A DNA stretch of 64,000 bases from a virus (IMGVR_UViG_2537561935_000012), one strand, 5' to 3'. Shown: positions 3,346-41,528, counted from the first letter of the stretch. Notes: generated from the letters alone by a model not told the origin. A program made the numbers and translations.

Positions 3346-3412
3346 GCAACAAATGACCGGTTGAGAAGTTACTTTGCATACCATTACCTCCTGACAACGT
3401 AGGAGGGAACTT

Positions 3413-4182: not shown

Positions 4183-4771
4183 GTATGCAACGGTCGATTT
4201 TGACCAGGTTAATGAAAAGGGGCTGAAATCCCTTATCGCGGCGATCAATAAAACCGGTGTTACGGTAATTGAGGTTGACTCCAGCAACCGCGCAACAACG
4301 AAAGATGGCGTTAAAGTTAAAACCGCAAAGCTGGTTCTTAACGACGGACAAATTCTTGCCATACAGGTAAACGATACTGGCGATATATCGTCTGTGAAAC
4401 TGAATGGAAAAGCTATTCCTAACGCTCAGTCGCCGGATATCAAGACGCTTGGTACCGTCATGGGACAGGCGGCCCGCAAAAACTCCGCAAAATTCCAGAA
4501 ATCACTGATCGCCAAAGCGAAGCGTGTTGCCAATCCGGTAGACAAGAAACCGGCAGTTAAATCCAACTTTCAGCGCCTGCAAGAAGCAAAACAGCGGAAT
4601 GCTCAGGTGGTTGCCGCTTATAAGTCCGCGCAGAATTCGGTGTCTTTCAATCAACAGCAGATCACTGATTTGCGGGCGAAGCTGGATAAGGAGACGGGCC
4701 GACTCAATAACGAAAAGGCACGGAATGGCGAACTCAAACGTCGTCTTAAGCAACTGAAAGCAGGAAATTAA
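4160..4771 (+). CDS. hdf: Hdf-like protein of the darA operon (coiled-coil C-terminus)
   Basis: 203 aa, immediately upstream of darA; assignment by synteny and size. Confidence 0.5.
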   Translation: MCQMTKNKYATVDFDQVNEKGLKSLIAAINKTGVTVIEVDSSNRATTKDGVKVKTAKLVLNDGQILAIQVNDTGDISSVKLNGKAIPNAQSPDIKTLGTVMGQAARKNSAKFQKSLIAKAKRVANPVDKKPAVKSNFQRLQEAKQRNAQVVAAYKSAQNSVSFNQQQITDLRAKLDKETGRLNNEKARNGELKRRLKQLKAGN

Positions 4772-4772: not shown

Positions 4773-6692
4773 ATGGAACAGTTAAATATCAATAAAGGGG
4801 TGACGATCAAGCCTGGGCTTGACGTGCTTCCCCCGCCAGTGACTGATGATGAATATCGCGCATTAATGGCCGGTGAGGACCGCTATCTGATGACGGAATC
4901 CAACACCCTGGAGGAAATCGAGGCTACGTTCTTCTATGACACGCCGATCCACTGGTGTGCTACGGATTTACTGGAGGCGATTAGTTCTACTCGTTTGCAG
5001 TTACACCGGACCATGCAGGCATTTGTCCGGGCATTGAACCAGAAGCTGAATGGTACCGGAATCTCTGCGGGGAGTGATAAAACGGGGGAGGTGGCCCAGA
5101 GCGGCGCGCGCGCGATCGGCGGTGCTGAAATTGGCCGGGCACGTAACGTTAACGGGCTGCCGGTCCTGCCAGCCATTATTCCGCTCAGTGATGGTCAGAC
5201 TATCAGCATTCTGTTTCATAGCCCGACAGCGGAAAACCGGATCACCAATAGCGATACGCTGGTTGCTTTCCAGTTCTTACTGAATAAAAAAGACGTTACT
5301 CACACCGTTGCTCCGATGAGTGGACGTGATATGACGCTGGCGCAGGTCACCATGAAACTTGCCAACCTTGCAGAGAAAAACTCGGCAAAATTCCAGCGTG
5401 CGCAGAAGAAGAAAAAAGCCCTGGTTGATGAAATAACCCAACTACAGGCTGACAGTGACCAGAAAGAGGATGCCATGAGCGACCTCGCGGATCAGGTGGC
5501 AGCGGTAGAAGGGCAGAAGGTAGATCTGGAGCAGAAAATTAACGCTGTTGCATCGGAAGCGGATTCTCTTTATGAAGAGAATGAGCGTTTGCAGACGGAG
5601 ATTGATCAGCTCAATCGCACAGGTGGGCGCGATACCATTGATCCAGCGGGGATGACTGGTGGGCACTCGCGCGCGCTGACGGATCGCCTTGCCAGTATCA
5701 AAAATCGTATGCATATGAACGGGGAAGTGACGCTCAGTAATGGAGCATCAATGAAGCAATTCATTGAGGACGGCGAAGGGGATATCCAGTTAACCGATTC
5801 GGATGGCAGCGTGTACATGATCAAGGCTAAATCCATACAGGGTGTGGACATGGCAGATGCGATCGGCAAGCTGTTTAAAGCCTATAAAGCGGGTAATGTA
5901 TCGGAATATCTGGTCCAACCAGAAGAACATAAACCGGAAAACGTCGAACCTGAACCAGCGGAGGATACCGGTAGCTCTTCGCCTGAACCAGAAGTCTCTG
6001 TAGGTGCATATCGATATGCCTTGCAAATGCGTCCGGCGGCCCCTGGCGCAATACCTGAAGGTAACAAAGCAATTCTGCCGCGCCCTGATGAAGGTGACCC
6101 GTATTATGAATATGCACGCTACGGCATTGCTACTTACGATACCCCGCTTTCTGATCAGCAAATGAGTGAGTACGACCTGAAGTTATTGCCTCGCGAGGAT
6201 TCTTTCGACTTCCTGGCGAAGACACTTACTAATGGTCCGTTTGGCAAATATGCACAAAAAGCTCTGGATCTGGCCACCAGCTCACCAGACGAGTTCCGCG
6301 TAATGCTGAAAACTCAGTTTCAAAAAACTTTCCCCAATATTGCGTTTCCGGGGGGCGCTGGCACCGAGAAAATGGTGCAGAGCATGATCAATGCATTGCA
6401 GGCCGAAGTCGGTGAGATTACTCAGCCAGAACCTGCCCCGGCACAGCCTGATGAAACGGTTAGCGAAGCAGATGCAGAGGCTAATAAAGCCATTGAATAT
6501 CTCAATAACGTGATGGATATGCAAAGCACTGACATGGCGGAGATCCGTAACGCCCGGGGTAATGTCCGGGAAGCGATTGCAGCCCTTCAGGCTGCCGGGC
6601 GTTTTGAGGAAAACGAAGAGCTGGTTAATGGCGCTGCTCGCCACCTGGCTGATCTGCTGGTAGCAATCCAGAAAGCGGGGGTAGCGGCATGA
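4773..6692 (+). CDS. darA: Defence-against-restriction internal head protein DarA
   Basis: 639 aa, same length as P1 DarA, placed between hdf and ddrA in the late operon; central coiled-coil. Confidence 0.75.
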   Translation: MEQLNINKGVTIKPGLDVLPPPVTDDEYRALMAGEDRYLMTESNTLEEIEATFFYDTPIHWCATDLLEAISSTRLQLHRTMQAFVRALNQKLNGTGISAGSDKTGEVAQSGARAIGGAEIGRARNVNGLPVLPAIIPLSDGQTISILFHSPTAENRITNSDTLVAFQFLLNKKDVTHTVAPMSGRDMTLAQVTMKLANLAEKNSAKFQRAQKKKKALVDEITQLQADSDQKEDAMSDLADQVAAVEGQKVDLEQKINAVASEADSLYEENERLQTEIDQLNRTGGRDTIDPAGMTGGHSRALTDRLASIKNRMHMNGEVTLSNGASMKQFIEDGEGDIQLTDSDGSVYMIKAKSIQGVDMADAIGKLFKAYKAGNVSEYLVQPEEHKPENVEPEPAEDTGSSSPEPEVSVGAYRYALQMRPAAPGAIPEGNKAILPRPDEGDPYYEYARYGIATYDTPLSDQQMSEYDLKLLPREDSFDFLAKTLTNGPFGKYAQKALDLATSSPDEFRVMLKTQFQKTFPNIAFPGGAGTEKMVQSMINALQAEVGEITQPEPAPAQPDETVSEADAEANKAIEYLNNVMDMQSTDMAEIRNARGNVREAIAALQAAGRFEENEELVNGAARHLADLLVAIQKAGVAA

Positions 6693-7054
6693 CACTATCA
6701 GCTATTGAGTTAATGGATCTCAGCGATAAGTTGGATGCTCTGATGTCCAAAGCGGCTACCGCGAGGGGCATGGAGTTGCTGGATATCAGCGATGAAATTG
6801 ACCAGATCATGCAACAGATGGGGTACGGTGTGTCCGGCGGCAGTAGTGGCGAGGAAAAACAACCTGCGGTACATGATGGTGTGCCAAAACTGGTTGCTGA
6901 TTTCCTGGCTGATAAATTCGTCGATCAGAGCACCGATGCATTTATCGGTACCTTGCAGGATTTGAGTCAATATGTTGGCACATACATCGACCTGGACCAG
7001 GTTAAACAGCACACGGCGGCATGGATAGCCGCCAACATTAAAGAGGCAGCATAA
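6689..7054 (+). CDS. ddrA: DdrA-like dar-operon protein
   Basis: 121 aa, overlaps darA stop; synteny. Confidence 0.55.
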   Translation: MTLSAIELMDLSDKLDALMSKAATARGMELLDISDEIDQIMQQMGYGVSGGSSGEEKQPAVHDGVPKLVADFLADKFVDQSTDAFIGTLQDLSQYVGTYIDLDQVKQHTAAWIAANIKEAA

Positions 7055-7066: not shown

Positions 7067-10054
7067 ATGAGCTTAAGCGATCAGGTGGGGATGGCCACCA
7101 GCATAGAAACGCTGATCGAGCTGCTAAAAAACCTGCCCGATTACGGGCGGGTTTCGTATGTGGTGACAGCGAAGGGAGACGAGGTAAAAACAGCGTTTGA
7201 TATCGTCGATGCCTCAGCTCTTTTGGTATCCAATACTCTGGACGGGAAAATTAATCCGGACTATCCCCAGGAACTTCAGCCGCGCGACCGGACCCGCGCA
7301 TCCAGTATTCTTCAGGTTAACCAGATATCCAAGGATTTGCGGCCTGCTCAGCTTACCGACTCCGGTTTATCCAGCCATGGAGCGCCGATAATTGGTGAGG
7401 ACAATGCCGTTGAGTCAGGTAATGGACGAACCATGGGGATCATTAAAGCCTATCAGGACGGCAATGCGGATCGGTATCGGGAGTACCTGATTGAACATGC
7501 GAGCGAATTCGGCATACGTCCTGAAAAGGTTGAATCAATGACGGCTCCGGTACTGGTGCGCCGCCGGTTAACTAAGGTTGACCGCGTTCAGTTTGCCAAA
7601 GACTCAAATATTTCTGATCTTCAGGAAATGGCAGCCAGTGAAAAGGCTTTTGTTGATGCCGACAGCATAACACCGGCGATGATGGCGCTTTTTAACCCGT
7701 CAGAAAGCGGAGATCTGCTTAGCCGCAGTAATGACGCGTTTATTCGCGGATTTATGACGCAAGTTGGTGCCACACAGGCGGCTGGACTTGTAACTGAAGA
7801 TGGGCGACCAACACGGCAACTTGTTGACCGGATACAAAACGCGATCTTTGCCAAGGCATATAAGGATGCGCGCCTGGTAAGAATGGTTGCAGAAGAACCT
7901 GATCCGGATATGCGTAATGTTCTGACGGCGCTTAATGCGGCGGCCAATGATTTTGTCCAGATGCAGGCTTTATCAGGAGAAGCGCACAAGCAGGCTGTGA
8001 CAACTATCGTTGATAGCATTGAAACAGCGGATAGCCTCGATAAAAAGGCGCTGGCTGCATTGAAAGATGCGGGAGACCTGGTAAGGCAATCGAAGGAGTC
8101 AGGCCAACATATTACCGATGTTATTGCTCAGGGGGATATGTTCAGCGAAACAGCCCCGGAAGTGAAAGCACTCGCGTTGTTTATCGTCGCGAATAACCGT
8201 AGCGCGAAGCGTATGGCCACCGCCTTTAAGTTGATGGCACAACGTATCAATGATGAGTTACAGCACCAGGGCCAGGCGCTCGGGGATATGTTTGGCGGCG
8301 GTGATGTGTCGTTACAGGATATCCTTCGCCAGGTGTCTCAGGAACTGGAATACGAAGGCATGCAAGGGATATCCGGCGGTCTTTTCGAGTCCGTTTCCGG
8401 CGGTAGTTACAACGGTGTTGCTCCGTATACCAGTTTGCTATTACATCGGGCATCCGGCATCAAAGACATTATTCATCTGATCAGGCTGCTTTCCCGCACA
8501 GATCCCCAGGATGAACAGCTTGTACAAGTGCTTGCGCATTTTGTTCGAATGCCTGTTGCCGACGTAAAAAAATGGTGCCGATTATTCGGTATCAGCAATT
8601 CGTTACTTCGCGGATTGTTAAATCACGCATCCTCCCTTGGGCGCGACGGCTTTGATGAGATAGCGCAGGCGATAAAAAACGGAGATATGCCACCAGCTAT
8701 TGACTGGTTTTCCATTCGCCCAACCAGGGTGAAAGCATTCCTTAGCGCGGCGCATTCGGCATCACCATTGGCAGAAATGGTTCAGAGGTTGTCGCTCATA
8801 TTCACAGACCATACCGCGTTGGGTGATCTGACTCTGGACGAGATGAAAGAAGCCTCCATTCAGTGGGCCGATCAACAAAATGAGGTTAACTCTGACTTCT
8901 TGCCAGTATTCAGGAAGGCCGTTAGTAAAGCTGATGATGCCCGTGGAATTCTGAAGGCATTTAAGGCATTGCAAAGTCAGGTTAATAAACATGTCGGTGA
9001 TATCGATGGGGTAACGGCGGAAGGCAGGGATATCCTTAAAGAGCACGGCATAACGCCAGAGTTTATTGATGAGATCAGGACTGATATGCAGCGTGAGGTC
9101 GTATCGTCCCTGCAAATCGTAGCCATAGCGTTGGCGGATGCTAATCCGAAGTGTGCGGCCATTGTTAACCGGGTTATTGGTGATATTGAAGCATCGGAGG
9201 GCATGGGGGCGCTGAAACTCTTCCTTTCGCGAGCGTTTAATCCTAACGGCAATATTCTCCCTGGCATTATTGGTGAGGCTAAAAAGTATGTCAGTGAAGA
9301 AGAACTTGAGCAGCTTGACCAACTACTTAAGCGATTCTCATATAACCCGCAGACACGCTGGCAAATGAATCAGCGAAGTATGGGTTCGGTCCACGAGAAA
9401 GTGTTATCTGCCATGAACAGTGCGATCGCCAACTCATCCGTATCTGAAGAAAAAGCTCTTGAGTGGGCCGACTCTTTTATCACGGAAGAAGTGGAAGAAG
9501 CCCGCGCTGGACAGAATGGTGGGATAGACCTGCGCAAGGAACTTGCTGATATTTATCGCCTGACCGGCGGTAAAATTTCGACCTTATCAAAGGTGGTTCA
9601 CCACCAGGGAAGGGCATATGCAAATCTTAATGGTGTTGTTGCTGTCAATTTGAACGATGAAAATGCAAGTGCACTGTGGCACGAGCTGGGTCATCATCTT
9701 GAGTACAGTAACCCTGGTTTGTTAGAGAAAGCCCGGTCATTCCTGAAGGCCAATGTTGAAGGGGATAAACCATCTTTCGTTAATATCGGTGGGCGTGGCA
9801 AGCCTGAATGGTGCTTCAGATCTCGATTGAGTAATATTTATATGGCGAAGGTATCCCCGCCAGCCTCAGTAAGTAACACCGGGAAAATTCGGCAGAAATC
9901 CCCGACTATTTCCAAAACGTCAGCAACGGAAGTATTCTCTATGGCTCTTCAGTTGTATCATGACAAAGAGGCCGCTGCCGCATCACTGATGAATGGTGAC
10001 GGATTGCTGGAACTGTTATTAGGTGTGGCAAAGGAGCTAAATAATGCAGATTAA
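7067..10054 (+). CDS. ddrB: DdrB-like large dar-operon protein
   Basis: 995 aa, follows ddrA; synteny and size. Confidence 0.6.
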   Translation: MSLSDQVGMATSIETLIELLKNLPDYGRVSYVVTAKGDEVKTAFDIVDASALLVSNTLDGKINPDYPQELQPRDRTRASSILQVNQISKDLRPAQLTDSGLSSHGAPIIGEDNAVESGNGRTMGIIKAYQDGNADRYREYLIEHASEFGIRPEKVESMTAPVLVRRRLTKVDRVQFAKDSNISDLQEMAASEKAFVDADSITPAMMALFNPSESGDLLSRSNDAFIRGFMTQVGATQAAGLVTEDGRPTRQLVDRIQNAIFAKAYKDARLVRMVAEEPDPDMRNVLTALNAAANDFVQMQALSGEAHKQAVTTIVDSIETADSLDKKALAALKDAGDLVRQSKESGQHITDVIAQGDMFSETAPEVKALALFIVANNRSAKRMATAFKLMAQRINDELQHQGQALGDMFGGGDVSLQDILRQVSQELEYEGMQGISGGLFESVSGGSYNGVAPYTSLLLHRASGIKDIIHLIRLLSRTDPQDEQLVQVLAHFVRMPVADVKKWCRLFGISNSLLRGLLNHASSLGRDGFDEIAQAIKNGDMPPAIDWFSIRPTRVKAFLSAAHSASPLAEMVQRLSLIFTDHTALGDLTLDEMKEASIQWADQQNEVNSDFLPVFRKAVSKADDARGILKAFKALQSQVNKHVGDIDGVTAEGRDILKEHGITPEFIDEIRTDMQREVVSSLQIVAIALADANPKCAAIVNRVIGDIEASEGMGALKLFLSRAFNPNGNILPGIIGEAKKYVSEEELEQLDQLLKRFSYNPQTRWQMNQRSMGSVHEKVLSAMNSAIANSSVSEEKALEWADSFITEEVEEARAGQNGGIDLRKELADIYRLTGGKISTLSKVVHHQGRAYANLNGVVAVNLNDENASALWHELGHHLEYSNPGLLEKARSFLKANVEGDKPSFVNIGGRGKPEWCFRSRLSNIYMAKVSPPASVSNTGKIRQKSPTISKTSATEVFSMALQLYHDKEAAAASLMNGDGLLELLLGVAKELNNAD

Positions 10055-10361
10055 AATCGCAGCGCCATTAGGCGGAGATGCCATTATCGAATTTGATGAT
10101 AATGAAGAAGTTTCCGGGCGTTTAAGCATTATCTCCGGTGACATTACCGAGGACATGATCGCTGAAGCCATAGCTGGGGCAAATCCCAATAGCTATATGG
10201 GATTCGTTAACACCCTTGATGCTCCCGCAAGTGATGTTCTCCGAACGCTGCATCTTTACGCTGGCTGGTTTGTTGATTGGCCAGCAGTAGAGGGTGGCGA
10301 TGAGGACGACGACGATGACGACGATGATTTTGGGGATCATGTAGACCAGATCGTATATTGA
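10044..10361 (+). CDS. iddB: IddB-like small acidic protein (poly-Asp tail)
   Basis: 105 aa with C-terminal DEDDDDDDDD run; last gene of operon before terminator. Confidence 0.45.
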   Translation: MQIKIAAPLGGDAIIEFDDNEEVSGRLSIISGDITEDMIAEAIAGANPNSYMGFVNTLDAPASDVLRTLHLYAGWFVDWPAVEGGDEDDDDDDDDFGDHVDQIVY

Positions 10362-10363
10362 AG

Positions 10364-10392
10364 AAATCCCGCCAATCGGCGGGATTTTTTTT
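10364..10392. terminator. Bidirectional rho-independent terminator
   Basis: Hairpin AAATCCCGCC-AATC-GGCGGGATTT followed by T-run, between convergent iddB (+) and hxr (-). Confidence 0.65.
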
Positions 10393-11179
10393 AATCGCTT
10401 TCCACTTCTTCCGTGGTGTTTTCTTGCAGTTCTGTTAATGCAGCACGACATAGGTTCCGGGCATTGGCTATAGCCACACTTTTGACTTCATCCGTCATCG
10501 TGCAGGTAATGTACTGATCGAGTTCTTCAGCGCGGATGATGCTTTTGCCAATCAGAAACTGTATTTGCCAGAGCAGATCGGCATCCATAATCAGAATTTC
10601 TGCCGGGCCTTCAGGGCCAGCCGGGAAGGAAACATAAGACTGTTTGCCCAGGCCGATAACTCGACAACTTGCTTCAAGAATTGCGCGCTTGAGGTCTGAC
10701 TTTGTAACTGAAACAGGTTGATTTTCACCTGCGATTACGCCGTTGACATGGATGTGGAAAGGCATGTAGCTTGAAATTCGCTCTACTTTCCATACGCCAG
10801 CAAGCGATCCTTCATGCAGCACAATGGGGGTAACCGCGAGTTTCATCTCACCATATAACTGCTGGCAGATGGCTGGATTGCTGAATACATCCAAAGGTTC
10901 ACACTCAAACAGCGGCGCAATCTGCATGAGGTCCATCATGGTCATACCAGGGGTACGAGCAGTAATGAATCTGCGCATGCCAGTATCCATTGTGCGCCAG
11001 ATAGCTACACCATGCTTTTTGCTCACTTCTTCAGTGAAGCCAAGGTGGCACATGATGGTTTTTTCGATAGCCAGATCAGAGATAGAAACCTTTTCGCCAG
11101 GTACACCATCATTATTGATGGTCACTTCGACACTCTGGCCATTACGCAGGCGGTATTGAATTGCTTTAGTATTTTCCAC
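10391..11179 (-). CDS. hxr: Hxr-like protein, function unknown
   Basis: 262 aa ORF with GTG start and upstream GGAG; synteny with P1 hxr. Confidence 0.45.
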   Translation of the reverse strand: MENTKAIQYRLRNGQSVEVTINNDGVPGEKVSISDLAIEKTIMCHLGFTEEVSKKHGVAIWRTMDTGMRRFITARTPGMTMMDLMQIAPLFECEPLDVFSNPAICQQLYGEMKLAVTPIVLHEGSLAGVWKVERISSYMPFHIHVNGVIAGENQPVSVTKSDLKRAILEASCRVIGLGKQSYVSFPAGPEGPAEILIMDADLLWQIQFLIGKSIIRAEELDQYITCTMTDEVKSVAIANARNLCRAALTELQENTTEEVESD

Positions 11180-11185
11180 GTTAAA

Positions 11186-11863
11186 TCACTCCACTACAAA
11201 CCAGTCACATGCCAGTAAGTCGCATACAGAAGGCACCCACGGAACAACTACACCTTGTGCATTTTTTAAGGCGAAATAAGCACCATACGGAACGAGGTCG
11301 CCGGGGAAATATCCCTTAATGGCTTCCATTCGTGCCGGGTACTGTCCTTCAGGAACCAGCCAGCAGAATTGGTTTTCGCCGTTCCACCCGCGTCGAGCAA
11401 CTTTCTTGCCATCCTTCAGCCACATCAGCGCGTCAGAAAAGTCGGCTGCTTCAAGGTCGATTTCTTCTTGTGTGGTAATGATGCCACTGGCAGCAATAGT
11501 TACGTCCCTGGCTGTAATGAATGTCACCCCATTGTGACCTTCAATACTGAGCGATACCCCATTTTCGAAGAAGTCGTTAGTCCGACTAAAGCCTTCTTCA
11601 AATGTTTTTTCTGGTGAATAGGACAGAGATCCGTCCTCATAAGCGACCAGATATCCGCCAATTTCTGGTCGGTGTTTTTGCAAAAACATTTTATCAACAT
11701 GGACTTTTACCCCTTCTGGCTCAACGACTTCGATGTTGCAAAAAAGGACCACATCCATTAGGGCGATAATTTCGATATCTTTGATTTTTGAGGCGCGAAC
11801 TGTTTTATGGCTTTTGTATTTTGGAAGTGCCGTCAAAAGCTCTTTCGTTGTCATGTTATTCAT
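11186..11863 (-). CDS. Protein with C-terminal DUF2829 (Tad2-like) domain and an uncharacterised N-terminal domain
   Basis: ATG at 11863 with AGAGGAAAG RBS. C-terminal about 85 aa FSDALMWLKDGKKVARRGWNGENQFCWLVPEG ... DWFVVE fit the F-x-x-AL-x-x-LK-x-GKKV-x-R-x-GW pattern I associate with DUF2829/Tad2 sponge proteins. Confidence 0.5.
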   Translation of the reverse strand: MNNMTTKELLTALPKYKSHKTVRASKIKDIEIIALMDVVLFCNIEVVEPEGVKVHVDKMFLQKHRPEIGGYLVAYEDGSLSYSPEKTFEEGFSRTNDFFENGVSLSIEGHNGVTFITARDVTIAASGIITTQEEIDLEAADFSDALMWLKDGKKVARRGWNGENQFCWLVPEGQYPARMEAIKGYFPGDLVPYGAYFALKNAQGVVVPWVPSVCDLLACDWFVVE

Positions 11864-12060
11864 AGTCTTTCCTCTGCTTAAAACCTGATGTATTGCGCCT
11901 TCAGGTGGGTCAGGAATGTTTTCCCACCAGCGAAAGCAATATCTCGGGGTGTTCTTTTCGTGAAAAGCGCGTGCCATTGCCAACTTTGGCGTTTGTTTGC
12001 GAGTTCGTGCTTTTGTCGGCGTCTGGACCACCGCTTTTCTTTCAGTCGTTTTTTACACAT

Positions 12061-12549
12061 TCAAAACGGAATATCGTCGTCAAAGTCCATTGGAGGTTCG
12101 TTATTGGCGTTGCTCTGAGGTTTACCGCCACCACTGTATTGCTGGTGGTTTTGAGGTTGGTTTGATTGCCCCCAGCCATTTGAGGACTGTGAATCGTCAC
12201 GGCGAGCGCCGATCATTTGCATGGTGCCGCCCTGGCTGACGATAATTTCCGTCGTGTAACGTTCTACACCGGCGTCATCTGTCCACTTACGGGTTTTAAG
12301 TTTCCCTTCGATGTAGACCTGAGAACCTTTTCGTAAATACTCACTCGCAATTTCAGCAAGTTTTCCGAACAAAACGACTTTATGCCATTCTGTTTGCTCT
12401 TTCTGTTGGCCTGTTTGCTTGCCCCGCCATGATTCATTCGTTGCGATGCTGAGTCTTCCGACCGCGCCGCCATTTGGTATATACCTGATCTCCGGGTCTT
12501 GCCCCAGGGTACCAATCAGGATGACTTTGTTTACACCGCGTTGTGCCAC
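12061..12549 (-). CDS. ssb: Single-stranded DNA-binding protein
   Basis: 162 aa, OB-fold N-terminus, Gly/Gln-rich linker and acidic C-terminal tail DFDDDIPF; near-identical in pattern to E. coli/P1 SSB. Confidence 0.95.
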
Positions 12550-16364: not shown

Positions 16365-19300
16365 ATGAACAAGCTATCTATGGGGGTGTTTCGCTGTTCA
16401 AGTGTCAGCGAAATATTGAAATACATTAGGGCAATAACATCTCACCGAGCGCCGATTAGATACGGCGTGGAAAAGGTGGAAGGCAAAAGCTATGACCGAC
16501 TACGCCGGGAGGCGAATCAGAAGGCGATAGATTTGCTTAATTCGCTGGTGGACGGCGCGACACTGACAGATGAACAGCGCCAGATCCTGGCTGGGTACAC
16601 CGGTGAAGGCGGCATTGGCGGGTCCGTCTCCGAATATTACACACCAAAGTCGATCGCTGAAGGTGTCTGGGAGATCATGAAGCTCTACGGCGCGGACGTA
16701 GGTAACACTCTGGAACCATCGGCGGGAACCGGCGTTTTTAATGAGACAAAACCGGTTGGTACGGTGATGACCGCGACTGAGATCAGCAGTGTTTCCGGTC
16801 GTATAAACCAGTTGTTACACCCGGAAGACAGCGTACAGATTTCCCCGTTCGAACAGCTGGCTATAAGCACGCCTAACGATTCATTCGACCATGTTGTGGG
16901 TAACGTTCCGTTCGGCGGTCGTGATAACACACGCAACATCGATAAGCCTTACGCAGAAGAAACGGACATGGGTTCTTACTTCATGCTCCGCATGCTGGAC
17001 AAGATAAAGCCTGGCGGATTCATGTGTGTGATTGTGCCGCCGTCCATTGTTTCAGGTTCAAACATGAAGCGGTTACGCCTGCGCCTATCACGGAAAGCTG
17101 AATTTCTTGGCGCTCACCGCTTGCCTACCGGTACTTTTGACGCAAACGGGACCAGTACAGTCGTTGATGTGGTGCTGATGCGCAAACATCCGGCAGAGAT
17201 GGCTGAGAAAATCCCCCTGGTGGATGAAGGCACTCTTGAATCGGCAAATGTGCTTTGGCCAACGTTTATTTCTGGCAAGTGGTTTGAAAAGGATGGCCGC
17301 CGGTTTGTTCATGGCACCCAGGAAAAGGGCTTCCAGGGGCGTATTGAGGTTCGTGCCGACGGTCAGATTGATAACCAGGCTCTTAAAGCGAAGCTGATTC
17401 ATCGTTTCGAAAGCCGTATCGACTGGTCTTTGCTCGATATGGCTGAACCGTCACCGACCGCAGACGTTGTTGGTGAAGGGGAAATGCGCCTGATTAATGG
17501 TGTATGGCAAAAATATGCTGGTGGTCGCTGGATTGAAGCTGATGCCGGGAAGGAACTTAAGATCGATGCTGCCAGTTATGGCGCGGATAGCTGGGAGGCT
17601 CTTCAGCGTAACCTGACTACAACAGAAGGCCGTCTCGGCATGACATTTACCCAGATGGCAAATGTCCGCGATAAGTACACCACATCAATCAGCGACGATA
17701 TGGTGCAGCTGGTGGACTGGATTAACAGCCAGCCTGAAAAATACCGTGAACGCTTGTATCGCGGGGCGATGATTGGCCGGATGTTAATTGAATATCAGGA
17801 CATGAAGGCCGCCGGGCATAGTGCTGAACAAATCGAACAGCAGCGCCTTTCTCTGGTATCCAGTTTGCAGGCAGAGATTGACCGTTTTGGTAACCCCGGT
17901 CGCGGTCCGATAGCGAAATTATCGGGGAGCGGTGCGCGCGCCTGGTTTGCTTTCCGTGGTGCAATTAAGCTGGATGGCACTATTTCTGACGAGCTGACAG
18001 GAAAACTGGTTACGCATGATTCCAGCGCCAGTTATGACTCCACCAGCTATCAGGACACCCTGCGTTATCTCTACAGTGATCTCACTCGCGATCCAATCCA
18101 GCTCGATGATTTCCGCCTTGCGTTTACCGGCGAACTGCCAGCCAGTGATGACGAGTTGCTTAATTTATTGGCCAGCACCCCTGGCATTGCGGTTTCACCG
18201 TATGGCGGGATTGTTCCGTTCGCCCGCGCCACCAGCGGCGACATTAACGAGATAGTGGCACCAAAACAGGAATTCCTTGCCACACTCCCCGACGGTCCAG
18301 TAAAGAACAACGTCCTTAATCAGCTGGCAGCGATCGAAGAGAAGCGCATCAAGACGCCAGCAGAGAATATCCGCTTTAAGCTCAATAGCCGTTGGTTCGA
18401 CCGTTCCGTCATTCTGGAATTTTTGCAGGAAAACGGCTATCCGGATCTTCGCTATGTGCAGTCAGTGCAGCTGGAAGGCGACGAAATGGTTTCTGACACC
18501 TATCACGGTGGTGATGGTCTGTTCGTCGGGCACCGATACGGTGTCGTCCAGCGCAAGGATAAAGAAACAGGCGAGATCCGCTACGAGTGGGATCGTAAAT
18601 CAGGTGAAAACGCGACCGGGTTCCCGGCACAGCTGGAAAAGTATCTCAATGGTGCGCGTATCGGTGGCAAAGATAGCGCGACGGCGAACGGCTACCGCGA
18701 GCAGATGGCACTGCTTGAGGACCAGTTCAATAAGTGGATCAAGACGCACGATCGCTACGATGAACTGGTTACCAAATACAACGATGTGTTCAATAGCAAT
18801 ATCCCGTATGAACACTCTGGCGATCCGCTTGGGTTGAAGGGATTAAGCGGTAAGCGCCAGCCATTTGATTACCAGAATAGCGAGGTGCGCCGACTGTCCG
18901 AAGATGGGCGCGGCATCCTGGGCTTCGGCACCGGGCTGGGTAAAACCACGACCGCGCTGGCGCTTGAGGCGTTCAACTATGAGAACGGTCGCTCCACCCG
19001 TACTGCGTATGTAGTGCCTAAATCAGTGCTGGAAAACTGGTATTACGAAGCAAAAGAATTCCTGAGTGAAGAGGCATTCAGTAACTACCTGTTCGTCGGT
19101 CTTGATGTGCTGATGGATGGCGATCAGATTCGCCAGGTGCCGGTGCTCGATGAGAACGGTAAACCTGTTCTTGGTACTGATGGCACTCCCGTTATGCGCG
19201 ATGCTCTTAAGCTGGCAGATGAAGCCACTATCACGGCGCGGATGAACGCGATCCCGCACTCAAATTACCGTGCAGTCGTGTTTACCAAAGAACAATACGC

Positions 19301-22300
19301 CCGCATTCCTCTACGTGATGACACCGTAGATGAGCATGCACAGGATATGCTTTATGACTTCGTTGCCGCCGGGCGCGTAGCCAGCGCAATGGATTCCGAT
19401 TCCCATCGCAAAGAGGCGGCGCGTCGCCGGGGATTGTCGGAGTATTCAGATACCGGTACCGAAAAAGCAGAGAAGTATCCGTACTTTGAGGATATGGGCT
19501 TCGATAGTGTGATCGCTGACGAAGGTCACAACTACCGCAATAGCTATAAAAATGGTCGCGAAGCGTCACAACTGGCCTATCTGCCCACCAGCGCGGTGGC
19601 GCAATCGGCGCGAGATATGGCAATTAAAAACGCGTACCTGATGAAAAAGAATGGCGGGCGCGGGCCGGTTCTCCTGACTGCAACGCCAGTCGTTAACACC
19701 CCGATCGATGCATACAACATGCTTTCTCATGTTCTGCCGAAGGAATACTGGCAGAACATGGGGATCTACGGTCCTGATGACTTCGTTAAATTCTTCGGCA
19801 AGACCAGGCTGGAAACGGTGCAGAAAATCAGCGGTGAAGTTGAAGAAAAAATGGCGCTGGTGGGCTTTGAAAACCTTGATGCGCTGCGCGGTATATTCCA
19901 TCGCTGGGTAACGCTTAAAACGGCGGAAGACGTTAAGGATACCGTGGAGATCCCGGAGCTGGACGAACACCAGCAGGATGCACCACTTACTGAAGAACAA
20001 CTGGCGGCGTATGAAGAATTGCGTCAGCAGGCGGAAGCGGCGGCAAAAGCCAACAATGGCGTTACGACCTCGGTCAATGAAGACGGCGTGATTGAGCACG
20101 AGAAAGCCCGTCCGATCTTCTCAATAATCAGGGATATGGACCGCGTATGTACTGACATGGACCTGTACTATCGCCGGATCACCTATCGTTTCCTGCCGGA
20201 GTACGCCGATGCGGTGCAGCAGCTGGCGGACAGTTTGCCTAAACAAGCCACCAGCGAAGACGACGACAGTGATGATTCAATCACGCAGCAATCGCAATAC
20301 TCCCTGATAGATAAGGGCGAGTTTATTCAGTTGCAGGTTCCGGAAGCGTTCGAGCAGGAAGTGAATAAGCGCCTGGCCAGGTTTGGCATTGACGAACAGA
20401 CCGTAACTCACCCCGTTACGCCGAAATACGCGAAGCTGATCGCCACGCTGAAGGAGTTTTTCCCGGAAGGGAAGCAAATCATCTTCACCGACGAAAAAAC
20501 GCAGCACCAGAAGCTCAAGCGCATTATCTGCAATGCTCTTAACCTTGAACCTTCAAAGGTAGGGATCCTGAATGCTCAGACGGTTGCCGAGGCAGGTAAA
20601 ACCGGTAAGAAACTGAAAGCGGTTAAACCGCCGAAAGAGTTACCGGATGAACCAACAGATGCACAGATAGCGAAATACAACGAGCAAATGGCTCTGTATG
20701 ACGCCTATATCGCGCAGCAAAATGAAATGTCGTTGGGCGGTCTGGAAAAGATTGCAGCCGACTTCCAGGAGGGCCGGACTCCGATCATCATCTGCAACAA
20801 AAAGGCAGAGGTGGGTATCAACCTGCATCGAGGAACGACTGACATCCATCATCTGACGTTGCCATGGACACCAGCCAGTATCGCACAGCGTAACGGTCGC
20901 GGTGCTCGAGTTGGCTCCAACCGTGCAAGCGTTCGCGTTCACTACTACTGCGGCAAGGGGTCTTTCGATGAATACCGATTGAAGACGCTGAAGCGTAAAG
21001 CAGGCTGGATCTCCGATATCCTCCGTTCAGATAAGTCGGAAATGGAGAACGCCGACGCCAATGACATGATCGAAATGCAGATGTATACCGCGAAGGATGA
21101 CGGCGAACGTCTGGCAATGATGCAGGTTCAAATGGATAAGGCGAAAGCTGCGAAACGCGCTCGCCAGAAAGAACAGGCTACTATCGACCTTCAGAATTAC
21201 ATCAAGGCGCAGCACGCAGCTGGCGAGGATGTGGAGGTACTTACCGCTGAATTAGAGCGAAGCAAAGCGGAACTTGAAAAGACCACCGCCGAGGTAGCTA
21301 AATTCAAACAGGCGGTAATGGCCAAAGCAGCTGATAACGCAGACTGGAAAGCCCGCTGGGGTAGCGTCCATCACACAGACCGTACGTTGTTAGCACAGTA
21401 TCGCGCGTCGTTGAAAAGCGCCATTCAGCGCAAGGCTAATATCTCTCAGGCCATCTCCCGCTATGAGAAATTATTGAACCGTACTCAGAAGGCCGCGACG
21501 GATATCAAACGCCTGCGCCCGCTGGTGGAGGATGCAATAAATAAAGGCATTCTGGATGTTGATCCTGATCTGGTTAACCATGCGAGTGAGTTCCTTGTTA
21601 TCGGCGATCGCTCATGGCGTGTAGGCCAATACTACGATTGTGCCGGTGATATCGTTCGCATTAAGTCGCTGGACTTCGACAGCCAGCGCGCAGACGTGGA
21701 GATCATCTTTACCTTCAAAGGCACCAAATCGGGTAACTGGGATGTGAAGACGCTGGATAAACAGGTGGATGTAACTCCCGATGAAGATGCTGTTATGCAG
21801 AAAATCAGTGGTGGCGTCTCCATCGCCGGGATTAACGACATCATTTCCTGTGACGATTTCTACCGTTTCCAGCAGCGCGGCATGATCAAAATCACTGACT
21901 CGTACGGCGTTCAGACTACAGAGTCAGGCTATAGCATTGATTTTGTTGGTACCTATACGGACCCACTGAAGCATGCGGTTTACCCGGATCGCCGTGACGG
22001 CGCGCTGAAGTCGTCAATTGCAAAATGGGTGCTTGGTATGATGTCGGAAGGGAATAACCGCCAGATCCGTTCGGCAGAAACATTCCTGGTTGAATTGTTT
22101 GGCTCCAATTATGGCGATGTAATCGCGTCATACGGAGATACGCTATCCCCTGAAGCAATTCAGGAGAAAATAGCGGATGCGATCGCCAGAATGCCGGAAA
22201 AAACAAGCCAGGGGGCTACTCGTAACGGGGATTCTGAACTTGAAGTCACCAATGCCATTTTCGGTACCAATGAGTTCCGGGCGTCAGATTATGAGATCAC

Positions 22301-23132
22301 CACAGCACAGTTTGGCACCATTGACATTTACAGCAATAAAGCCGAGATCAAGCAGGCAATGGACGCAGCAAGCGCGCGCATCGCAGCAGAACGGGAAGCC
22401 AATCTGAATCATGCAGTCGCCGCGCTGACTCAATCGTGGGTAACAGCAATCAGGGAGGCCGCCACCACAGGGAAAATCACACCTGCAATAGCGGATGTCG
22501 TAAACGACGGCTCTAAATTTATGGATGCCTATCAAATGGATGCGGTGAAGTTGCCATCAGCCTATGGTCAACTCAGCTATCGCATGACCTACAACCTGGT
22601 ATCAATGTTTTCCGACCTTGCCATCCTTGGGCTGGTGGATCTTAACGAGGTTACGCCGGAATTGCTCAGCATGCGCAAGAATCATGTGGAGATATTGCAG
22701 AGAATTAACACGGTTCTTGCCGGGCGCACCGATGAAGAGAAACAGGCCGACGCTGATCGGATAAACCTGGCCCTTGGCAACATCACGGAGGAAGAGATTG
22801 CCGCCAGAAACGAGAAACAAGAAGAGTTATCATCAATACAGGGTGATGCCACCAGCATAGCTCAGTCTCTTGGTCTGAATTATCGCGTATCCACCGCCGA
22901 CCTGAAGATGATGTACGCACCAAAATTCGCCGCTGGCGAGGTATTTGGGCTTCAGGAAGCCTCAGGCATGAAAGGCGTTCTTTTCCGTGCGAAAGACGCA
23001 ATCAAGGCGAAATTCGGCGCTCGCTGGCTGCCAGCGAAGGCGAAGAACAGCGATTTCCCGGGTAACTGGTGGATTATCGAGACAAAACACAACGTGGCGG
23101 ACGTTCTGGCCGTCATCCAACAATACGCATAA
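16365..23132 (+). CDS. darB: Defence-against-restriction protein DarB: N6-adenine methyltransferase domain fused to SF2 helicase domain
   Basis: 2255 aa; N-terminal MTase motifs (EPSAGTGVF; VVGNVPFGG), helicase motif I GFGTGLGKTTTA, motif II VIADEGHNY, motif VI QRNGRGARVGS; same length as P1 DarB. Confidence 0.9.
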   Translation: MNKLSMGVFRCSSVSEILKYIRAITSHRAPIRYGVEKVEGKSYDRLRREANQKAIDLLNSLVDGATLTDEQRQILAGYTGEGGIGGSVSEYYTPKSIAEGVWEIMKLYGADVGNTLEPSAGTGVFNETKPVGTVMTATEISSVSGRINQLLHPEDSVQISPFEQLAISTPNDSFDHVVGNVPFGGRDNTRNIDKPYAEETDMGSYFMLRMLDKIKPGGFMCVIVPPSIVSGSNMKRLRLRLSRKAEFLGAHRLPTGTFDANGTSTVVDVVLMRKHPAEMAEKIPLVDEGTLESANVLWPTFISGKWFEKDGRRFVHGTQEKGFQGRIEVRADGQIDNQALKAKLIHRFESRIDWSLLDMAEPSPTADVVGEGEMRLINGVWQKYAGGRWIEADAGKELKIDAASYGADSWEALQRNLTTTEGRLGMTFTQMANVRDKYTTSISDDMVQLVDWINSQPEKYRERLYRGAMIGRMLIEYQDMKAAGHSAEQIEQQRLSLVSSLQAEIDRFGNPGRGPIAKLSGSGARAWFAFRGAIKLDGTISDELTGKLVTHDSSASYDSTSYQDTLRYLYSDLTRDPIQLDDFRLAFTGELPASDDELLNLLASTPGIAVSPYGGIVPFARATSGDINEIVAPKQEFLATLPDGPVKNNVLNQLAAIEEKRIKTPAENIRFKLNSRWFDRSVILEFLQENGYPDLRYVQSVQLEGDEMVSDTYHGGDGLFVGHRYGVVQRKDKETGEIRYEWDRKSGENATGFPAQLEKYLNGARIGGKDSATANGYREQMALLEDQFNKWIKTHDRYDELVTKYNDVFNSNIPYEHSGDPLGLKGLSGKRQPFDYQNSEVRRLSEDGRGILGFGTGLGKTTTALALEAFNYENGRSTRTAYVVPKSVLENWYYEAKEFLSEEAFSNYLFVGLDVLMDGDQIRQVPVLDENGKPVLGTDGTPVMRDALKLADEATITARMNAIPHSNYRAVVFTKEQYARIPLRDDTVDEHAQDMLYDFVAAGRVASAMDSDSHRKEAARRRGLSEYSDTGTEKAEKYPYFEDMGFDSVIADEGHNYRNSYKNGREASQLAYLPTSAVAQSARDMAIKNAYLMKKNGGRGPVLLTATPVVNTPIDAYNMLSHVLPKEYWQNMGIYGPDDFVKFFGKTRLETVQKISGEVEEKMALVGFENLDALRGIFHRWVTLKTAEDVKDTVEIPELDEHQQDAPLTEEQLAAYEELRQQAEAAAKANNGVTTSVNEDGVIEHEKARPIFSIIRDMDRVCTDMDLYYRRITYRFLPEYADAVQQLADSLPKQATSEDDDSDDSITQQSQYSLIDKGEFIQLQVPEAFEQEVNKRLARFGIDEQTVTHPVTPKYAKLIATLKEFFPEGKQIIFTDEKTQHQKLKRIICNALNLEPSKVGILNAQTVAEAGKTGKKLKAVKPPKELPDEPTDAQIAKYNEQMALYDAYIAQQNEMSLGGLEKIAADFQEGRTPIIICNKKAEVGINLHRGTTDIHHLTLPWTPASIAQRNGRGARVGSNRASVRVHYYCGKGSFDEYRLKTLKRKAGWISDILRSDKSEMENADANDMIEMQMYTAKDDGERLAMMQVQMDKAKAAKRARQKEQATIDLQNYIKAQHAAGEDVEVLTAELERSKAELEKTTAEVAKFKQAVMAKAADNADWKARWGSVHHTDRTLLAQYRASLKSAIQRKANISQAISRYEKLLNRTQKAATDIKRLRPLVEDAINKGILDVDPDLVNHASEFLVIGDRSWRVGQYYDCAGDIVRIKSLDFDSQRADVEIIFTFKGTKSGNWDVKTLDKQVDVTPDEDAVMQKISGGVSIAGINDIISCDDFYRFQQRGMIKITDSYGVQTTESGYSIDFVGTYTDPLKHAVYPDRRDGALKSSIAKWVLGMMSEGNNRQIRSAETFLVELFGSNYGDVIASYGDTLSPEAIQEKIADAIARMPEKTSQGATRNGDSELEVTNAIFGTNEFRASDYEITTAQFGTIDIYSNKAEIKQAMDAASARIAAEREANLNHAVAALTQSWVTAIREAATTGKITPAIADVVNDGSKFMDAYQMDAVKLPSAYGQLSYRMTYNLVSMFSDLAILGLVDLNEVTPELLSMRKNHVEILQRINTVLAGRTDEEKQADADRINLALGNITEEEIAARNEKQEELSSIQGDATSIAQSLGLNYRVSTADLKMMYAPKFAAGEVFGLQEASGMKGVLFRAKDAIKAKFGARWLPAKAKNSDFPGNWWIIETKHNVADVLAVIQQYA

Positions 23133-23165: not shown

Positions 23166-23606
23166 ATGGCCACACTATCTGATACAATAAAACCGAATAA
23201 AACATATCTTGAGGCGGTACTCCGTACAGCGTTGTTAGGAAAGACAGAAGACGAATACGTTGATTTCTTCCTGTCAGGGCTACGCGGGCGATTACTGAAA
23301 AACCCCCGCCTGTACCGCAGCTATGGTCCATACTGGCCGGAAATTAAAAAATTATTACTGGAGCGCGGTTATGGTAATTTCGGTCGTCTCGTTGACCGTG
23401 ACGTTCGCAAAATTTACCGTTATGACCGCCCGGCGCTAACACTCATAGCCGCGACGCTCTACAGCCAGGAGCGTTTTGATAATGGTCAGATATACTCAGC
23501 CTGGCATTTACTGCCAGTGCCTGAAGAAGTTGACGACCAGGACTATGAGTTTGAGTCTTACGATTTGGAAGTTGAAGCCTTGGCACAGGCTGGAGAGAAA
23601 ACTTGA
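23166..23606 (+). CDS. ulx: Ulx-like protein
   Basis: 146 aa immediately downstream of darB; synteny. Confidence 0.5.
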   Translation: MATLSDTIKPNKTYLEAVLRTALLGKTEDEYVDFFLSGLRGRLLKNPRLYRSYGPYWPEIKKLLLERGYGNFGRLVDRDVRKIYRYDRPALTLIAATLYSQERFDNGQIYSAWHLLPVPEEVDDQDYEFESYDLEVEALAQAGEKT

Positions 23607-23851
23607 AAAAGCGATACTACACAGTAAAGCATGGGACGCTACGAGCATTACAAGAGTTTGCTGACAAGCATAACGTTGAGGTGCGCAGGGAAGGGGGAAG
23701 TAAAGCTCTGCGCATGTACCGTCCGGACGGGAAATGGCGTACGGTCGTCGATTTCAAAACTAACAGTGTTCCCCAGGGCGTCCGCGATCGGGCATTCGAA
23801 GAATGGGAGCAGATCATCATAGATAACGCATTGCTCCTGAATGCTGATTAA
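23603..23851 (+). CDS. lxc: Lxc/Bof-like C1 co-repressor
   Basis: 82 aa, overlaps ulx stop; size and position as P1 lxc (bof). Confidence 0.5.
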   Translation: MKKRYYTVKHGTLRALQEFADKHNVEVRREGGSKALRMYRPDGKWRTVVDFKTNSVPQGVRDRAFEEWEQIIIDNALLLNAD

Positions 23852-23856
23852 GAACT

Positions 23857-23883
23857 CTCCGGCCTAGGGAGATTAGGCCGGAG
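23857..23883. terminator. Hairpin between convergent genes (candidate terminator)
   Basis: CTCCGGCCTA-gggagat-TAGGCCGGAG 10-bp perfect stem between lxc (+) and the SIR2-like gene (-); no clear T-run. Confidence 0.45.
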
Positions 23884-23892
23884 ATAAATATA

Positions 23893-25197
23893 CTATATAA
23901 ACTTAGATACAATATCGTGAATCTGTTGTAGCGGGATATCTTCCATCTCATTCTTAATAAGAGAGCGGTTAGATGCTGTCAGTGAAGGCCATTTTGTTTT
24001 CCAGGCTAGATATGCTCGCCATGAGTAGCCTGTTTCGTAAGGTTTATTCATATAAGTCATTGAGTGTTCAACCGCATGTATGTATTTTTTCTCAAAATTG
24101 GTTCCTTTTACTTCAAATAAACTACCGAAATAAATAAGCCATTTTGCCAGGTGTTCATACTGCTCCCATGCGCCAGGCTTTTTAGTAAGCTCTATTTTTT
24201 TATCTATTATATTACAAAAAACATTTAATACATTTTCATTATTCCAGCTATATCCAGATGATGAAATGGAGGAAATGATATGATAAAAAGAATCCTCTAG
24301 CTTCAAGAACTCTATTTTATACTCTCTTCCGTTTTTTATTACCGATTTGATTGAGTGCCTCAATTTGTCTTTTATTTTTTTTGCTTCTGGAATTTTATCG
24401 TTAAGTTTTCTAAAGAAATCAGATACCTCTGTTTTATCTATAACCCTAACCCCATAGCAGGAAAAATAGTAATCTTTAATAGGTTGCAATAGTTCCCCTC
24501 GGGAAACAAGGAAAATATTGGAGGACATTACGTTGTCCCGTGAAAATACCTTATATTCATTTATAATAGCCTTTAGGTTCGCGTCACTTAGAGAATAGCC
24601 AAGGATAACAATAGTGTTTTCATGTAGAACTGTGCTTAGTTTATTAGAAAAGTAAGAATTACCATTTATAAATCTGAAATAATCCTCGCTAGTAACAACC
24701 ATGTCTGATGGGGAGTCTATAGAACCGTGAACATGGTAGACTTTAACCTCACAATTATATTTTGGAATTGGCAGGCCGGGGGTGATTGTACAAGTTCGAT
24801 TCTCTCCAGCCAGCTTTTCTGCTAACTTGTCATAATTTGTCGTAATTACTTTAAATGTGTTTTCTTTGAAAAAGTCTTGAATATATTCAATTGATGGATC
24901 AAGTTCGATTGAGGCTATGATTTTCTCAATCTCTTGGTAAATATTTTTCCCCGAAAGTATAAGTTTTAGTGCAATAACCTGAGCAGCTTCTTCAAGGCTA
25001 AGGTCTTTTGCTTTTCCATCAGGAAATAATTCCTCTTTGAGTGAGTCACCATCCTTCAATAAACCGCACAGTTGCTCCAATAAAGATTGCCAACTTGGGG
25101 CTTTATCATCAGAAACAGCCTTTGAAAATCCAGTGCCTGTAAGAAAGCACAGCCTATGTGTAGCCGCTGCATAGGCAATTTCTATATACTCGCTCAT
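23893..25197 (-). CDS. SIR2-like (NAD-dependent deacetylase/NADase fold) protein with uncharacterised C-terminal domain; candidate anti-phage defence effector
   Basis: 434 aa, ATG with GGAG RBS. N-terminal motifs CFLTGTGFS (GAGxS-like), VITTNYD and VYHVHGS in the order and spacing of SIR2-family defence proteins. DNA is markedly AT-rich (about one-third GC in a sampled stretch) compared with neighbours. Confidence 0.7.
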   Translation of the reverse strand: MSEYIEIAYAAATHRLCFLTGTGFSKAVSDDKAPSWQSLLEQLCGLLKDGDSLKEELFPDGKAKDLSLEEAAQVIALKLILSGKNIYQEIEKIIASIELDPSIEYIQDFFKENTFKVITTNYDKLAEKLAGENRTCTITPGLPIPKYNCEVKVYHVHGSIDSPSDMVVTSEDYFRFINGNSYFSNKLSTVLHENTIVILGYSLSDANLKAIINEYKVFSRDNVMSSNIFLVSRGELLQPIKDYYFSCYGVRVIDKTEVSDFFRKLNDKIPEAKKIKDKLRHSIKSVIKNGREYKIEFLKLEDSFYHIISSISSSGYSWNNENVLNVFCNIIDKKIELTKKPGAWEQYEHLAKWLIYFGSLFEVKGTNFEKKYIHAVEHSMTYMNKPYETGYSWRAYLAWKTKWPSLTASNRSLIKNEMEDIPLQQIHDIVSKFI

Positions 25198-25253
25198 TAC
25201 TTACTCCATTTACTTATAGTTCTACGGAGAAGTATACCCTAATGCATTGACGT

Positions 25254-38623: not shown

Positions 38624-38629
38624 ATAAAT

Positions 38630-39019: not shown

Positions 39020-39101
39020 TTGCTGAAAAAATCAAAACATTTACTTTTGACATTATAAATTTTCTCTCGGTGTCGTAGGTGATAGCACCATAATTGATAA
39101 T

Positions 39102-40993: not shown

Positions 40994-40994
40994 A

Positions 40995-41183: not shown

Positions 41184-41191
41184 CTTACAGC

Positions 41192-41362: not shown

Positions 41363-41528
41363 GCTCTCCTGCGTCTCTTTGCTGCTCGTCGTGCCGCTGC
41401 AATACCGGTATGGCGGCGCTTTGGTGCCGGGATGATGTTGTCAGCCATCAGGACATACGGCTTTGCAATTAGCGCAGAAGCCCAAAAACGAGTCGGGTAC
41501 GGTAACAAGCCGATACATGCCACACGCA

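Follow-up and report, generated by a model that had tools for sequence, protein, structure and literature searches.

Background

In phage P1 the Dar (defence against restriction) system is made up of six proteins, Hdf, DarA, DdrA, DdrB, Ulx and DarB (PMC12810830, PMC9024508, PMC5512222). These are loaded into the head in steps and ejected along with the DNA, which they protect against type I enzymes; protection depends on DarA for EcoA and StySA, and on DarB, Ulx and DdrB for EcoK and EcoB (PMC12810830, PMC9024508, PMC5512222). Hdf is a head-size determinant that is needed for loading of the Dar proteins (PMC12810830, PMC9024508), DdrB helps to add DarB to the capsid and Ulx helps to localise it there (PMC9024508), and the capsid-targeting signal of DarB has been defined experimentally as its first 30 residues (PMC9024508). 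Here we compare with P1 and its relatives a 64,000-nucleotide stretch of viral DNA, IMGVR_UViG_2537561935_000012, referred to below at its full length as the window, in which a 2255-residue reading frame had been flagged as DarB. Beside an intact set of Dar genes the window carries two cargo genes, one a standalone gene of the SIR2 family and the other a gene in which a Tad2 domain is fused to a module resembling the Dec protein of phage L.

A P1-like phage-plasmid and its darB gene

Mapping by blastn shows that the window is collinear with the complete P1 genome, in reverse orientation and at 94–99% identity, with few segments replaced. It is therefore very probably a phage-plasmid of the P1 type (Punavirus, IncY-type), with the flagged reading frame as its darB gene. 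Near-identical records in PLSDB are non-mobilizable Escherichia coli plasmids of 93–99 kb, of which CP088419, the record examined in detail, is typed IncY; in the closest plasmid record, 92% of window positions 21000–45000 are matched at 99.0% identity. Full-length copies of darB are present in 441 PLSDB plasmids, of the Tad2 fusion in 193 and of the SIR2 gene in 65. Both cargo genes are common among E. coli IncY P1-like plasmids, and the element is of an ordinary type, with hundreds of sequenced relatives.

The P1 segment that matches the flagged frame is annotated as darB, with 98.3% nucleotide identity over 100% of the length. At the protein level 2227 of the 2255 residues are shared with P1 DarB (98.8%), leaving 28 substitutions. 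Searches of phage records by megablast return 19 full-length matches at 97.7–98.8%, all from Punavirus (P1, P7, SJ46, RCS47 and others). The gene and the regions of its product are as follows.

16365–23132, + strand: darB, a single uninterrupted open reading frame of 6768 nt starting at ATG, 2255 amino acids
DarB residues 1–30: capsid-targeting signal
DarB residues ~85–290: N6-adenine methyltransferase region
DarB residues 89–290: Pfam N6_Mtase, E 4e-08, 33.4 bits against a cutoff of 20.4
DarB residues 166–244: Pfam Eco57I methyltransferase, E 2e-07
DarB residues 117 and 180: methyltransferase motifs I (EPSAGTGVF) and IV (NVPF)
DarB residues ~830–1550: SNF2/SF2 helicase core
DarB residues 833–911: Pfam ResIII, exactly at the curated cutoff
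DarB residues 849–910: Pfam SNF2-rel_dom, E 7e-11
DarB residues 1455–1517: Pfam Helicase_C
DarB residues 857, 1052 and 1508: helicase motifs I (Walker A, GLGKT), II (DExH, DEGH) and VI (QRNGRGARVG)

The preliminary description had assigned an N6-adenine methyltransferase domain and an SF2 helicase domain to DarB, and both assignments are upheld by profile hidden Markov models. All five Pfam matches reach their curated cutoffs, ResIII just equalling its own, and the motifs of both domains are intact. PADLOC and NCBIfam agree, returning type I and type II methyltransferase models together with the SNF2-like helicases DrmD, ZorD and DpdE, and the nearest sequences in the PDB are EcoKI HsdM (the M subunit) and a SNF2/Rad54 helicase. 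In the C-terminal ~700 residues no domain is assigned by the Pfam, PADLOC and NCBIfam scans, and the same is true of P1 DarB. The methyltransferase and helicase activities of DarB are predictions by domain homology.

The SIR2 gene and the lxc–mat slot

The 3′ ends of lxc and mat enclose a segment with no counterpart in P1, which holds the SIR2-like gene reported in the preliminary description.

23852–25253: segment without counterpart in P1
23856–23884, no strand assigned: 11-bp hairpin, with 7 G-C pairs, where the lxc and SIR2 genes converge
23893–25197, − strand: standalone SIR2_2 gene, 434 amino acids (Pfam SIR2_2, E 2e-23), with a GC content of 0.354 against ~0.50 for the backbone

The low GC content of the gene (0.354–0.358) indicates a foreign origin. 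A GGAG ribosome-binding site precedes it, and the hairpin that follows its stop codon is likely to be a terminator. What occupies the same position differs from phage to phage (loci L001, L012, L013, L014 and L015). P1 has the EcoP1I mod and res genes and IS5 here (locus L001), SJ46 has CapRel, Ro157c2YLVW a helix-turn-helix gene with a hypothetical gene, JL22 a hypothetical gene of 316 amino acids, and RCS47 nothing. CapRel in SJ46 is a validated defence system (PMC9712102). In P1-like phage-plasmids the lxc–mat interval acts as a site at which defence cargo, single-gene or otherwise compact, is exchanged.

Several features of the protein point to a SIR2 NADase of the kind found in defence systems. 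In an alignment of 31 sequences the mean column identity is 69%, and Asn121, Asp123 and His157 are invariant; these residues align with the TTNYD and HG(D/S) motifs of ThsA, as expected generically of a SIR2 NADase. The AlphaFold2 model (mean predicted local distance difference test score 83.6) has a Rossmann-type core extending to residue ~257, followed by an all-helical region, residues 258–434. The best PDB matches to this model in Foldseek are the SIR2 domains of DSR2, KomC and ThsA, and a sequence search of the PDB agrees. Superposition on DSR-type proteins covers the SIR2 core only (TM score 0.45–0.48 on the query; root-mean-square deviation ~20 for the whole chain).

The genomic company of the homologues points in the same direction. 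They are 55–61% identical to the window's protein, are all ~434 amino acids long and occur across the Gammaproteobacteria. Five neighbourhoods share no common partner gene, and include a type I hsdR gene (Marinobacter), Gabija GajA and GajB (Pseudomonas putida) and an island with HNH, HSDR_N and DUF87 genes (Halomonas). A homologue of 436 amino acids (56% identity) stands as a lone gene at the integrase end of an E. coli chromosomal prophage, in 42 contigs (loci L008–L011), so that an unrelated temperate phage also carries a member of the family as a moron. The window's gene has no match among deposited phage records, even in distant mode, and is thus known only from records in plasmid or prophage form.

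On balance we regard the gene as probably a prophage-encoded, standalone abortive-infection defence that acts by depleting NAD+. In such a mechanism the helical C-terminal domain would sense infection and release the NADase activity of the SIR2 core.

Several observations weigh against this proposal. The best PADLOC model, PDC-S25 (E 6e-24), is matched at model positions 127–278 of 517, ThsA at positions 107–215 of 478, and the SIR2-type LmuA (E 1.5e-13) at positions 21–221 of 433, so that every match to a defence model is confined to the SIR2 core. PDC-S25 is itself a candidate label, for which no published validation was found in the literature searched, and a defence role for this SIR2 family is as yet without experimental support. 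The helical C-terminal domain could not be assigned a homologue, whole-chain Foldseek matches being to the core only, and a simple scan of the minus strand between mat and the SIR2 gene gave no sigma-70-like promoter.

The same gaps, together with the want of a partner gene or a recognised sensor domain and a database name that reads only 'SIR2 family NAD-dependent protein deacylase', would suit a protein that has no part in defence, either a deacylase or ADP-ribosyltransferase that serves maintenance of the plasmid or prophage (through addiction or regulation, for instance) or an inert passenger. We consider this rather unlikely. The protein belongs to Pfam SIR2_2 and not to the classical sirtuin family, and every one of the solved structures nearest to it is that of a defence NADase; in sister phages the slot holds restriction genes or the CapRel defence, and the homologues lie in defence islands and at prophage edges. 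The level of conservation in the alignment, with its invariant catalytic residues, speaks against an inert passenger in particular.

Thoeris, the DSR1 and DSR2 proteins and Lamassu were each weighed as a home for the SIR2 gene and set aside on grounds of architecture and partner genes. It is not ThsA of Thoeris, because Pfam gives no match to a SLOG or Macro domain in the protein and no TIR gene is found beside it (the neighbours are lxc and mat) or in the five homologue contexts. It is not DSR1 or DSR2, which have ~1000–1200 amino acids against its 434; its NCBIfam scores of 30.5 bits (Dsr2) and 21.2 bits (Dsr1) fall far under the cutoff of 1400. Nor is it the LmuA of Lamassu, since an SMC-like LmuB neighbour is absent from the window locus and from the homologue contexts. 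If the protein is shown to defend, it would be a compact SIR2 effector whose sensor domain has only ~175 residues, from a family found widely among the Gammaproteobacteria, with members in at least 65 sequenced E. coli plasmids.

The Dec–Tad2 fusion and the ssb–hxr slot

The second cargo gene lies directly behind ssb, in the interval between ssb and hxr.

10391–11179, − strand: reading frame of 262 amino acids, corresponding to the C-terminal part of P1 IsaA (95.5% nucleotide identity to isaA)
11186–11863, − strand: Dec-like and Tad2 fusion gene, 225 amino acids, ATG at 11863 with ribosome-binding site GAGGAAAG; the same 678-bp call is made by PGAP in CP088419
12569–12585, − strand: C1 operator Ossb, ATTGCTCTAATTAATTT, identical to P1 Ossb, upstream of ssb (12061–12549) and the fusion gene

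A mechanically called frame extends further upstream (11186–12031, − strand, 281 amino acids, GTG at 12031; Pfam Tad2-like, E 5.7e-23), and the ATG at 11863 is the more probable start. The preliminary description listed this gene as a Tad2-like frame and an offensive module. The Tad2 domain is indeed there in full, as part of a 225-residue Dec-like fusion and not as a stand-alone sponge; the label 'offensive' is a matter of interpretation.

Residues 141–224 form a complete Tad2/DUF2829 domain (PF11195; E 3.6e-23, 82.3 bits against a cutoff of 25). This domain aligns from end to end with ModTad2/Tad2 (PDB 9eib and 8v3e; E ~1e-19 to 6e-23; 46% identity in the Foldseek alignment), with the Tad2 of SPO1, HgmTad2/AcrIIA7 and SptTad2 as more distant matches, and all of the top 24 Foldseek matches to the fusion are Tad2 or AcrIIA7. 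The N-terminal ~125 residues are modelled as a confident β-barrel followed by low-confidence β-strands, with a linker before the Tad2 domain. Over positions 22–124 the family profile matches residues 24–120 of the phage L protein Dec (PDB 6e3c; E 4.4e-06), which Foldseek finds as well (E 5e-4). In relatives from ~90-kb contigs the Tad2 domain is kept and its partner is swapped, for example for a dUTPase or a crAss001_48 (PF21825) domain, and a fold search of BFVD with the fusion model shows only that phages often encode Tad2 in multi-domain proteins.

The position of the gene suggests early expression under the C1 repressor. It stands behind ssb and the Ossb operator; on the minus strand the stretch from ssb to the fusion gene is free of terminator-like sites, and a late-promoter motif was not found near the gene on that strand. 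Early expression would suit a protein directed against host defences better than a structural protein. A tentative reading, on which our judgement is nearly balanced with doubt slightly the stronger, is that the protein sequesters a nucleotide immune signal; because ModTad2 is the nearest solved relative, the most likely class of ligand would be the His-ADPR signal of type II Thoeris.

Three points count against reading the fusion as a signal sponge. Phage L Dec is a trimeric decoration protein on the outside of the capsid. The characterised Tad2 sponges are stand-alone homotetramers of ~90 amino acids with pockets formed between subunits. According to its Methods, the sponge survey removed Tad2 homologues that also contain a PF21825 or PDB 6E3C domain (bioRxiv 10.1101/2025.08.24.671296), and the Dec–Tad2 class was therefore set aside from its experiments.

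The principal alternative takes the Dec-like module at face value and makes the protein a capsid accessory, a decoration or cementing protein displaying DUF2829 on the surface of the particle, instead of an intracellular anti-Thoeris sponge. The profile match to Dec, extending over ~100 positions, and the Foldseek match to 6e3c both lend themselves to this, as do residues 97–137, whose short, low-confidence β-strands are what would be expected of a stalk that folds only in the oligomer, and the omission of fusions of this class from the sponge survey. Structural genes of P1 are, however, expressed from Lpa-dependent late promoters, unlike the fusion gene, which sits behind ssb under Ossb with neither a late-promoter motif nor an intervening terminator. 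Moreover, reference P1 lacks the gene and yet forms stable virions, and the swapping of partner domains in relatives marks the Tad2 domain as the functional constant. We therefore judge a capsid role to be distinctly improbable.

A combination of the two, in which the Dec-like module would carry the Tad2 sponge with the particle, is very unlikely: the homology to Dec speaks for it, and the early, C1-controlled context of the gene and the fact that Dec sits on the outside of phage L capsids speak against it. If it were true, anti-defence that is pre-loaded in the virion would extend from restriction to signalling immunity (Thoeris or Pycsar).

Comparison with other phages shows that the slot itself is variable. 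Reference P1 lacks the fusion gene through a 684-bp deletion (window 11176–11859) whose flanks have been fused, next to IS1, into the annotated isaA. P1 isaA thus appears to be a fusion product that joins the region upstream of the fusion gene to the 262-residue frame. The P1 locus (L001 5105–7668, equivalent to window 10360–12060) also carries IS1 and isaB, which are absent from the window. The fusion gene is kept in SJ46 and Ro157c2YLVW; in JL22 the slot is occupied by ompD, and in RCS47 it is interrupted by IS26. The 262-residue frame follows the fusion gene directly after a gap of 6 nt and may be functionally linked to it; it has no match in Pfam, NCBIfam or PADLOC. The slot thus holds Tad2-domain fusions of a kind that experimental surveys set aside, and work on reference P1, from which the gene is deleted, cannot reveal its role.

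The Dar genes and their promoter

Both of the operons named in the preliminary description, hdf–darA–ddrA–ddrB and that of darB, are present with all six genes intact, in two loci and with the late promoter LPdar; the order at the second locus is darB–ulx–lxc, and not ulx–darB.

3366–3384, + strand: late promoter LPdar, −22 box AAGTTACTT, −10 TACCAT; the same as the 19-nt annotated P1 LPdar
3413–3742, + strand: lydA, of the holin/holin antagonist pair with lydB, by P1 synteny; heads the darA operon
3739–4182, + strand: lydB (Pfam LydB, E 8e-104; 145 of 147 residues identical to P1)
4160–4771, + strand: hdf, 203 amino acids, DarA-N homologue (Pfam DarA_N, E 1e-21; 201 of 203 residues as in P1, 99.0%)
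4773–6692, + strand: darA, internal head protein of 639 amino acids (DarA_N, E 4e-42; DarA_C, E 6e-17; 623 of 639, 97.5%)
6689–7054, + strand: ddrA, 121 amino acids (114 of 121 as in P1 DdrA, 94.2%)
7067–10054, + strand: ddrB, 995 amino acids, with DdrB-type ParB domain (ddrB-ParB, E 4e-39; 974 of 995, 97.9%)
23166–23606, + strand: ulx, 146 amino acids (144 of 146 as in P1 Ulx, 98.6%), downstream of darB and overlapping lxc
23603–23851, + strand: lxc, 82 amino acids (82 of 82 as in P1), a modulator of C1 and not a Dar protein; left edge of the cargo slot

The motifs LPdar, LPpro and Ossb are all conserved with P1. Gene content, intactness, domains, motifs, synteny and the late promoter are all seen, and nothing in the sequence argues against a Dar system. 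PADLOC matches of DarA to LmuB, JetC and PbeC (E 5e-05 to 2e-03) fall on a coiled-coil stretch, residues 154–284, and were rejected as compositional and not meaningful.

By orthology with P1, whose experiments provide the basis for packaging, ejection and protection, the system in the window's element would work as follows. The genes lydA, lydB, hdf, darA, ddrA and ddrB would be transcribed late from LPdar. Procapsids would then be loaded with Hdf and DarA first, followed by DdrA, DdrB, Ulx and DarB, the last entering by means of its N-terminal 30-residue signal to give ~40 copies per virion. Once ejected with the DNA, the Dar proteins would shield it from type I restriction: EcoA-type enzymes would be countered by DarA, Hdf and DdrA, and EcoK and EcoB by DarB, Ulx and DdrB.

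That darB is decaying or non-functional here, and the arsenal complete only on paper, is extremely unlikely: the 28 differences from P1 DarB, and the two coding sequences annotated for darB in SJ46, which show that the lineage does include copies that are disrupted or wrongly sequenced, are set against an unbroken frame, intact methyltransferase and helicase motifs, a targeting signal within residues 1–31 that are identical to P1 (the first difference is at residue 32), substitutions that are scattered and all outside the listed catalytic motifs, and the full-length plasmid copies, mostly at 95–99% identity, which are consistent with purifying selection.

The SJ46 gene (locus L012 9016–15768) is annotated as coding sequences of 4482 and 2091 nt though its DNA is 98.8% identical over the full length; the gene may truly be split, or the annotation may reflect a frameshift or a sequencing error. 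A 17-mer resembling the C1 operator, ATTGCCCTAATGTATTT, with 3 mismatches to the consensus, lies at 16419–16435 on the minus strand, within the first 25 codons of darB, and the P7 record has a C1 binding site annotated under its darB match. These sites hint at repressor control of darB in some lineages.

Layout of the element and other variable regions

From the start of hdf to the start codon of the SIR2 gene the distance is 21,038 bp, in keeping with the earlier statement that the modules lie within 25 kb. The genes between them, ssb, lyz, lydD/E, pro and prt, with lysis, protease and portal functions among them, are the normal P1 backbone, so that the arrangement follows conserved P1 gene order and is no special concentration of arms-race genes. 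The Dar backbone is conserved and the cargo varies at two slots, ssb–hxr and lxc–mat; there is no dedicated island. A linked SIR2–Tad2 pair was considered and rejected: the Tad2 fusion is found with other lxc–mat cargo in SJ46 and Ro157c2YLVW, and the unequal numbers of plasmids with the two genes (193 and 65) also contradict coupling.

Two further regions depart from P1.

1–2183: tail-fibre variable region unlike P1, with 72–73% identity over ~530 bp to P1 U/U′; positions 530–2183 are mostly without a P1 match and adjoin cin (2376–2936)
37711–43516, − strand: insert of 5.8 kb, absent from P1, in the pap–pmgT region

The divergence of the tail-fibre region suggests a different host-range cassette. 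In the insert lie some ten small genes on the minus strand, of a kind usual in lambdoid accessory regions, with DUF551, Ead/Ea22 and the function-unassigned PHROGs 2638, 1258, 3876, 2814, 9263, 2457 and 4030; the P1 annotation notes that the corresponding position resembles sequences flanking type I hsd loci. A Tad2 domain was sought in this insert and not found there, being located instead in the frame at 11186–12031.

Comparison with known systems

The Dar part of the element is already known biology, the canonical and well-studied system of P1. Window and P1 have the same six genes in the same order and orientation, at 94–99% protein identity, with LPdar, an identical DarB N-terminal signal and the same flanking genes (prt/pro and lxc). 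The differences are scattered substitutions only (28 in DarB, 21 in DdrB, 16 in DarA and 7 in DdrA). As a textbook set of virion-packaged anti-restriction genes, ~99% identical to P1, this copy adds nothing new. What differs is the cargo beside it, the window lacking the EcoP1I mod and res genes, IS5 and IS1. The two genes that it carries instead fall within known types, one with the SIR2 NADases of defence type and the other with the Tad2-domain proteins, and we offer them as modest leads without claim to discovery.

The SIR2 protein shares with DSR2, ThsA and KomC the TTNYD and HVHGS signatures, with the residues Asn121, Asp123 and His157, and a helical region following the core. It is much smaller than DSR2 (434 against ~1000 amino acids) and, in contrast to ThsA/ThsB, KomC and Lamassu, it stands without a SLOG domain, a TIR partner, a KomB-type partner or LmuB. 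Like CapRel in SJ46 it is a single, compact, minus-strand cargo gene in the lxc–mat slot, whereas its family and mechanism are unrelated both to CapRel, a tRNA-pyrophosphorylating toxSAS, and to EcoP1I, a type III restriction-modification system.

The fusion resembles ModTad2 and the other Tad2 sponges in having the complete domain, alignable from end to end, and differs from them in placing it behind a Dec-like module of ~125 residues and a linker, for a total of 225 residues. With phage L Dec (6e3c) it shares the N-terminal β-barrel and the β-strand region that follows, a homology detectable at the level of profiles. Identity to Dec is low, the fusion has an additional C-terminal Tad2 domain, and its gene belongs to an early, apparently C1-controlled unit and not to the late structural genes.

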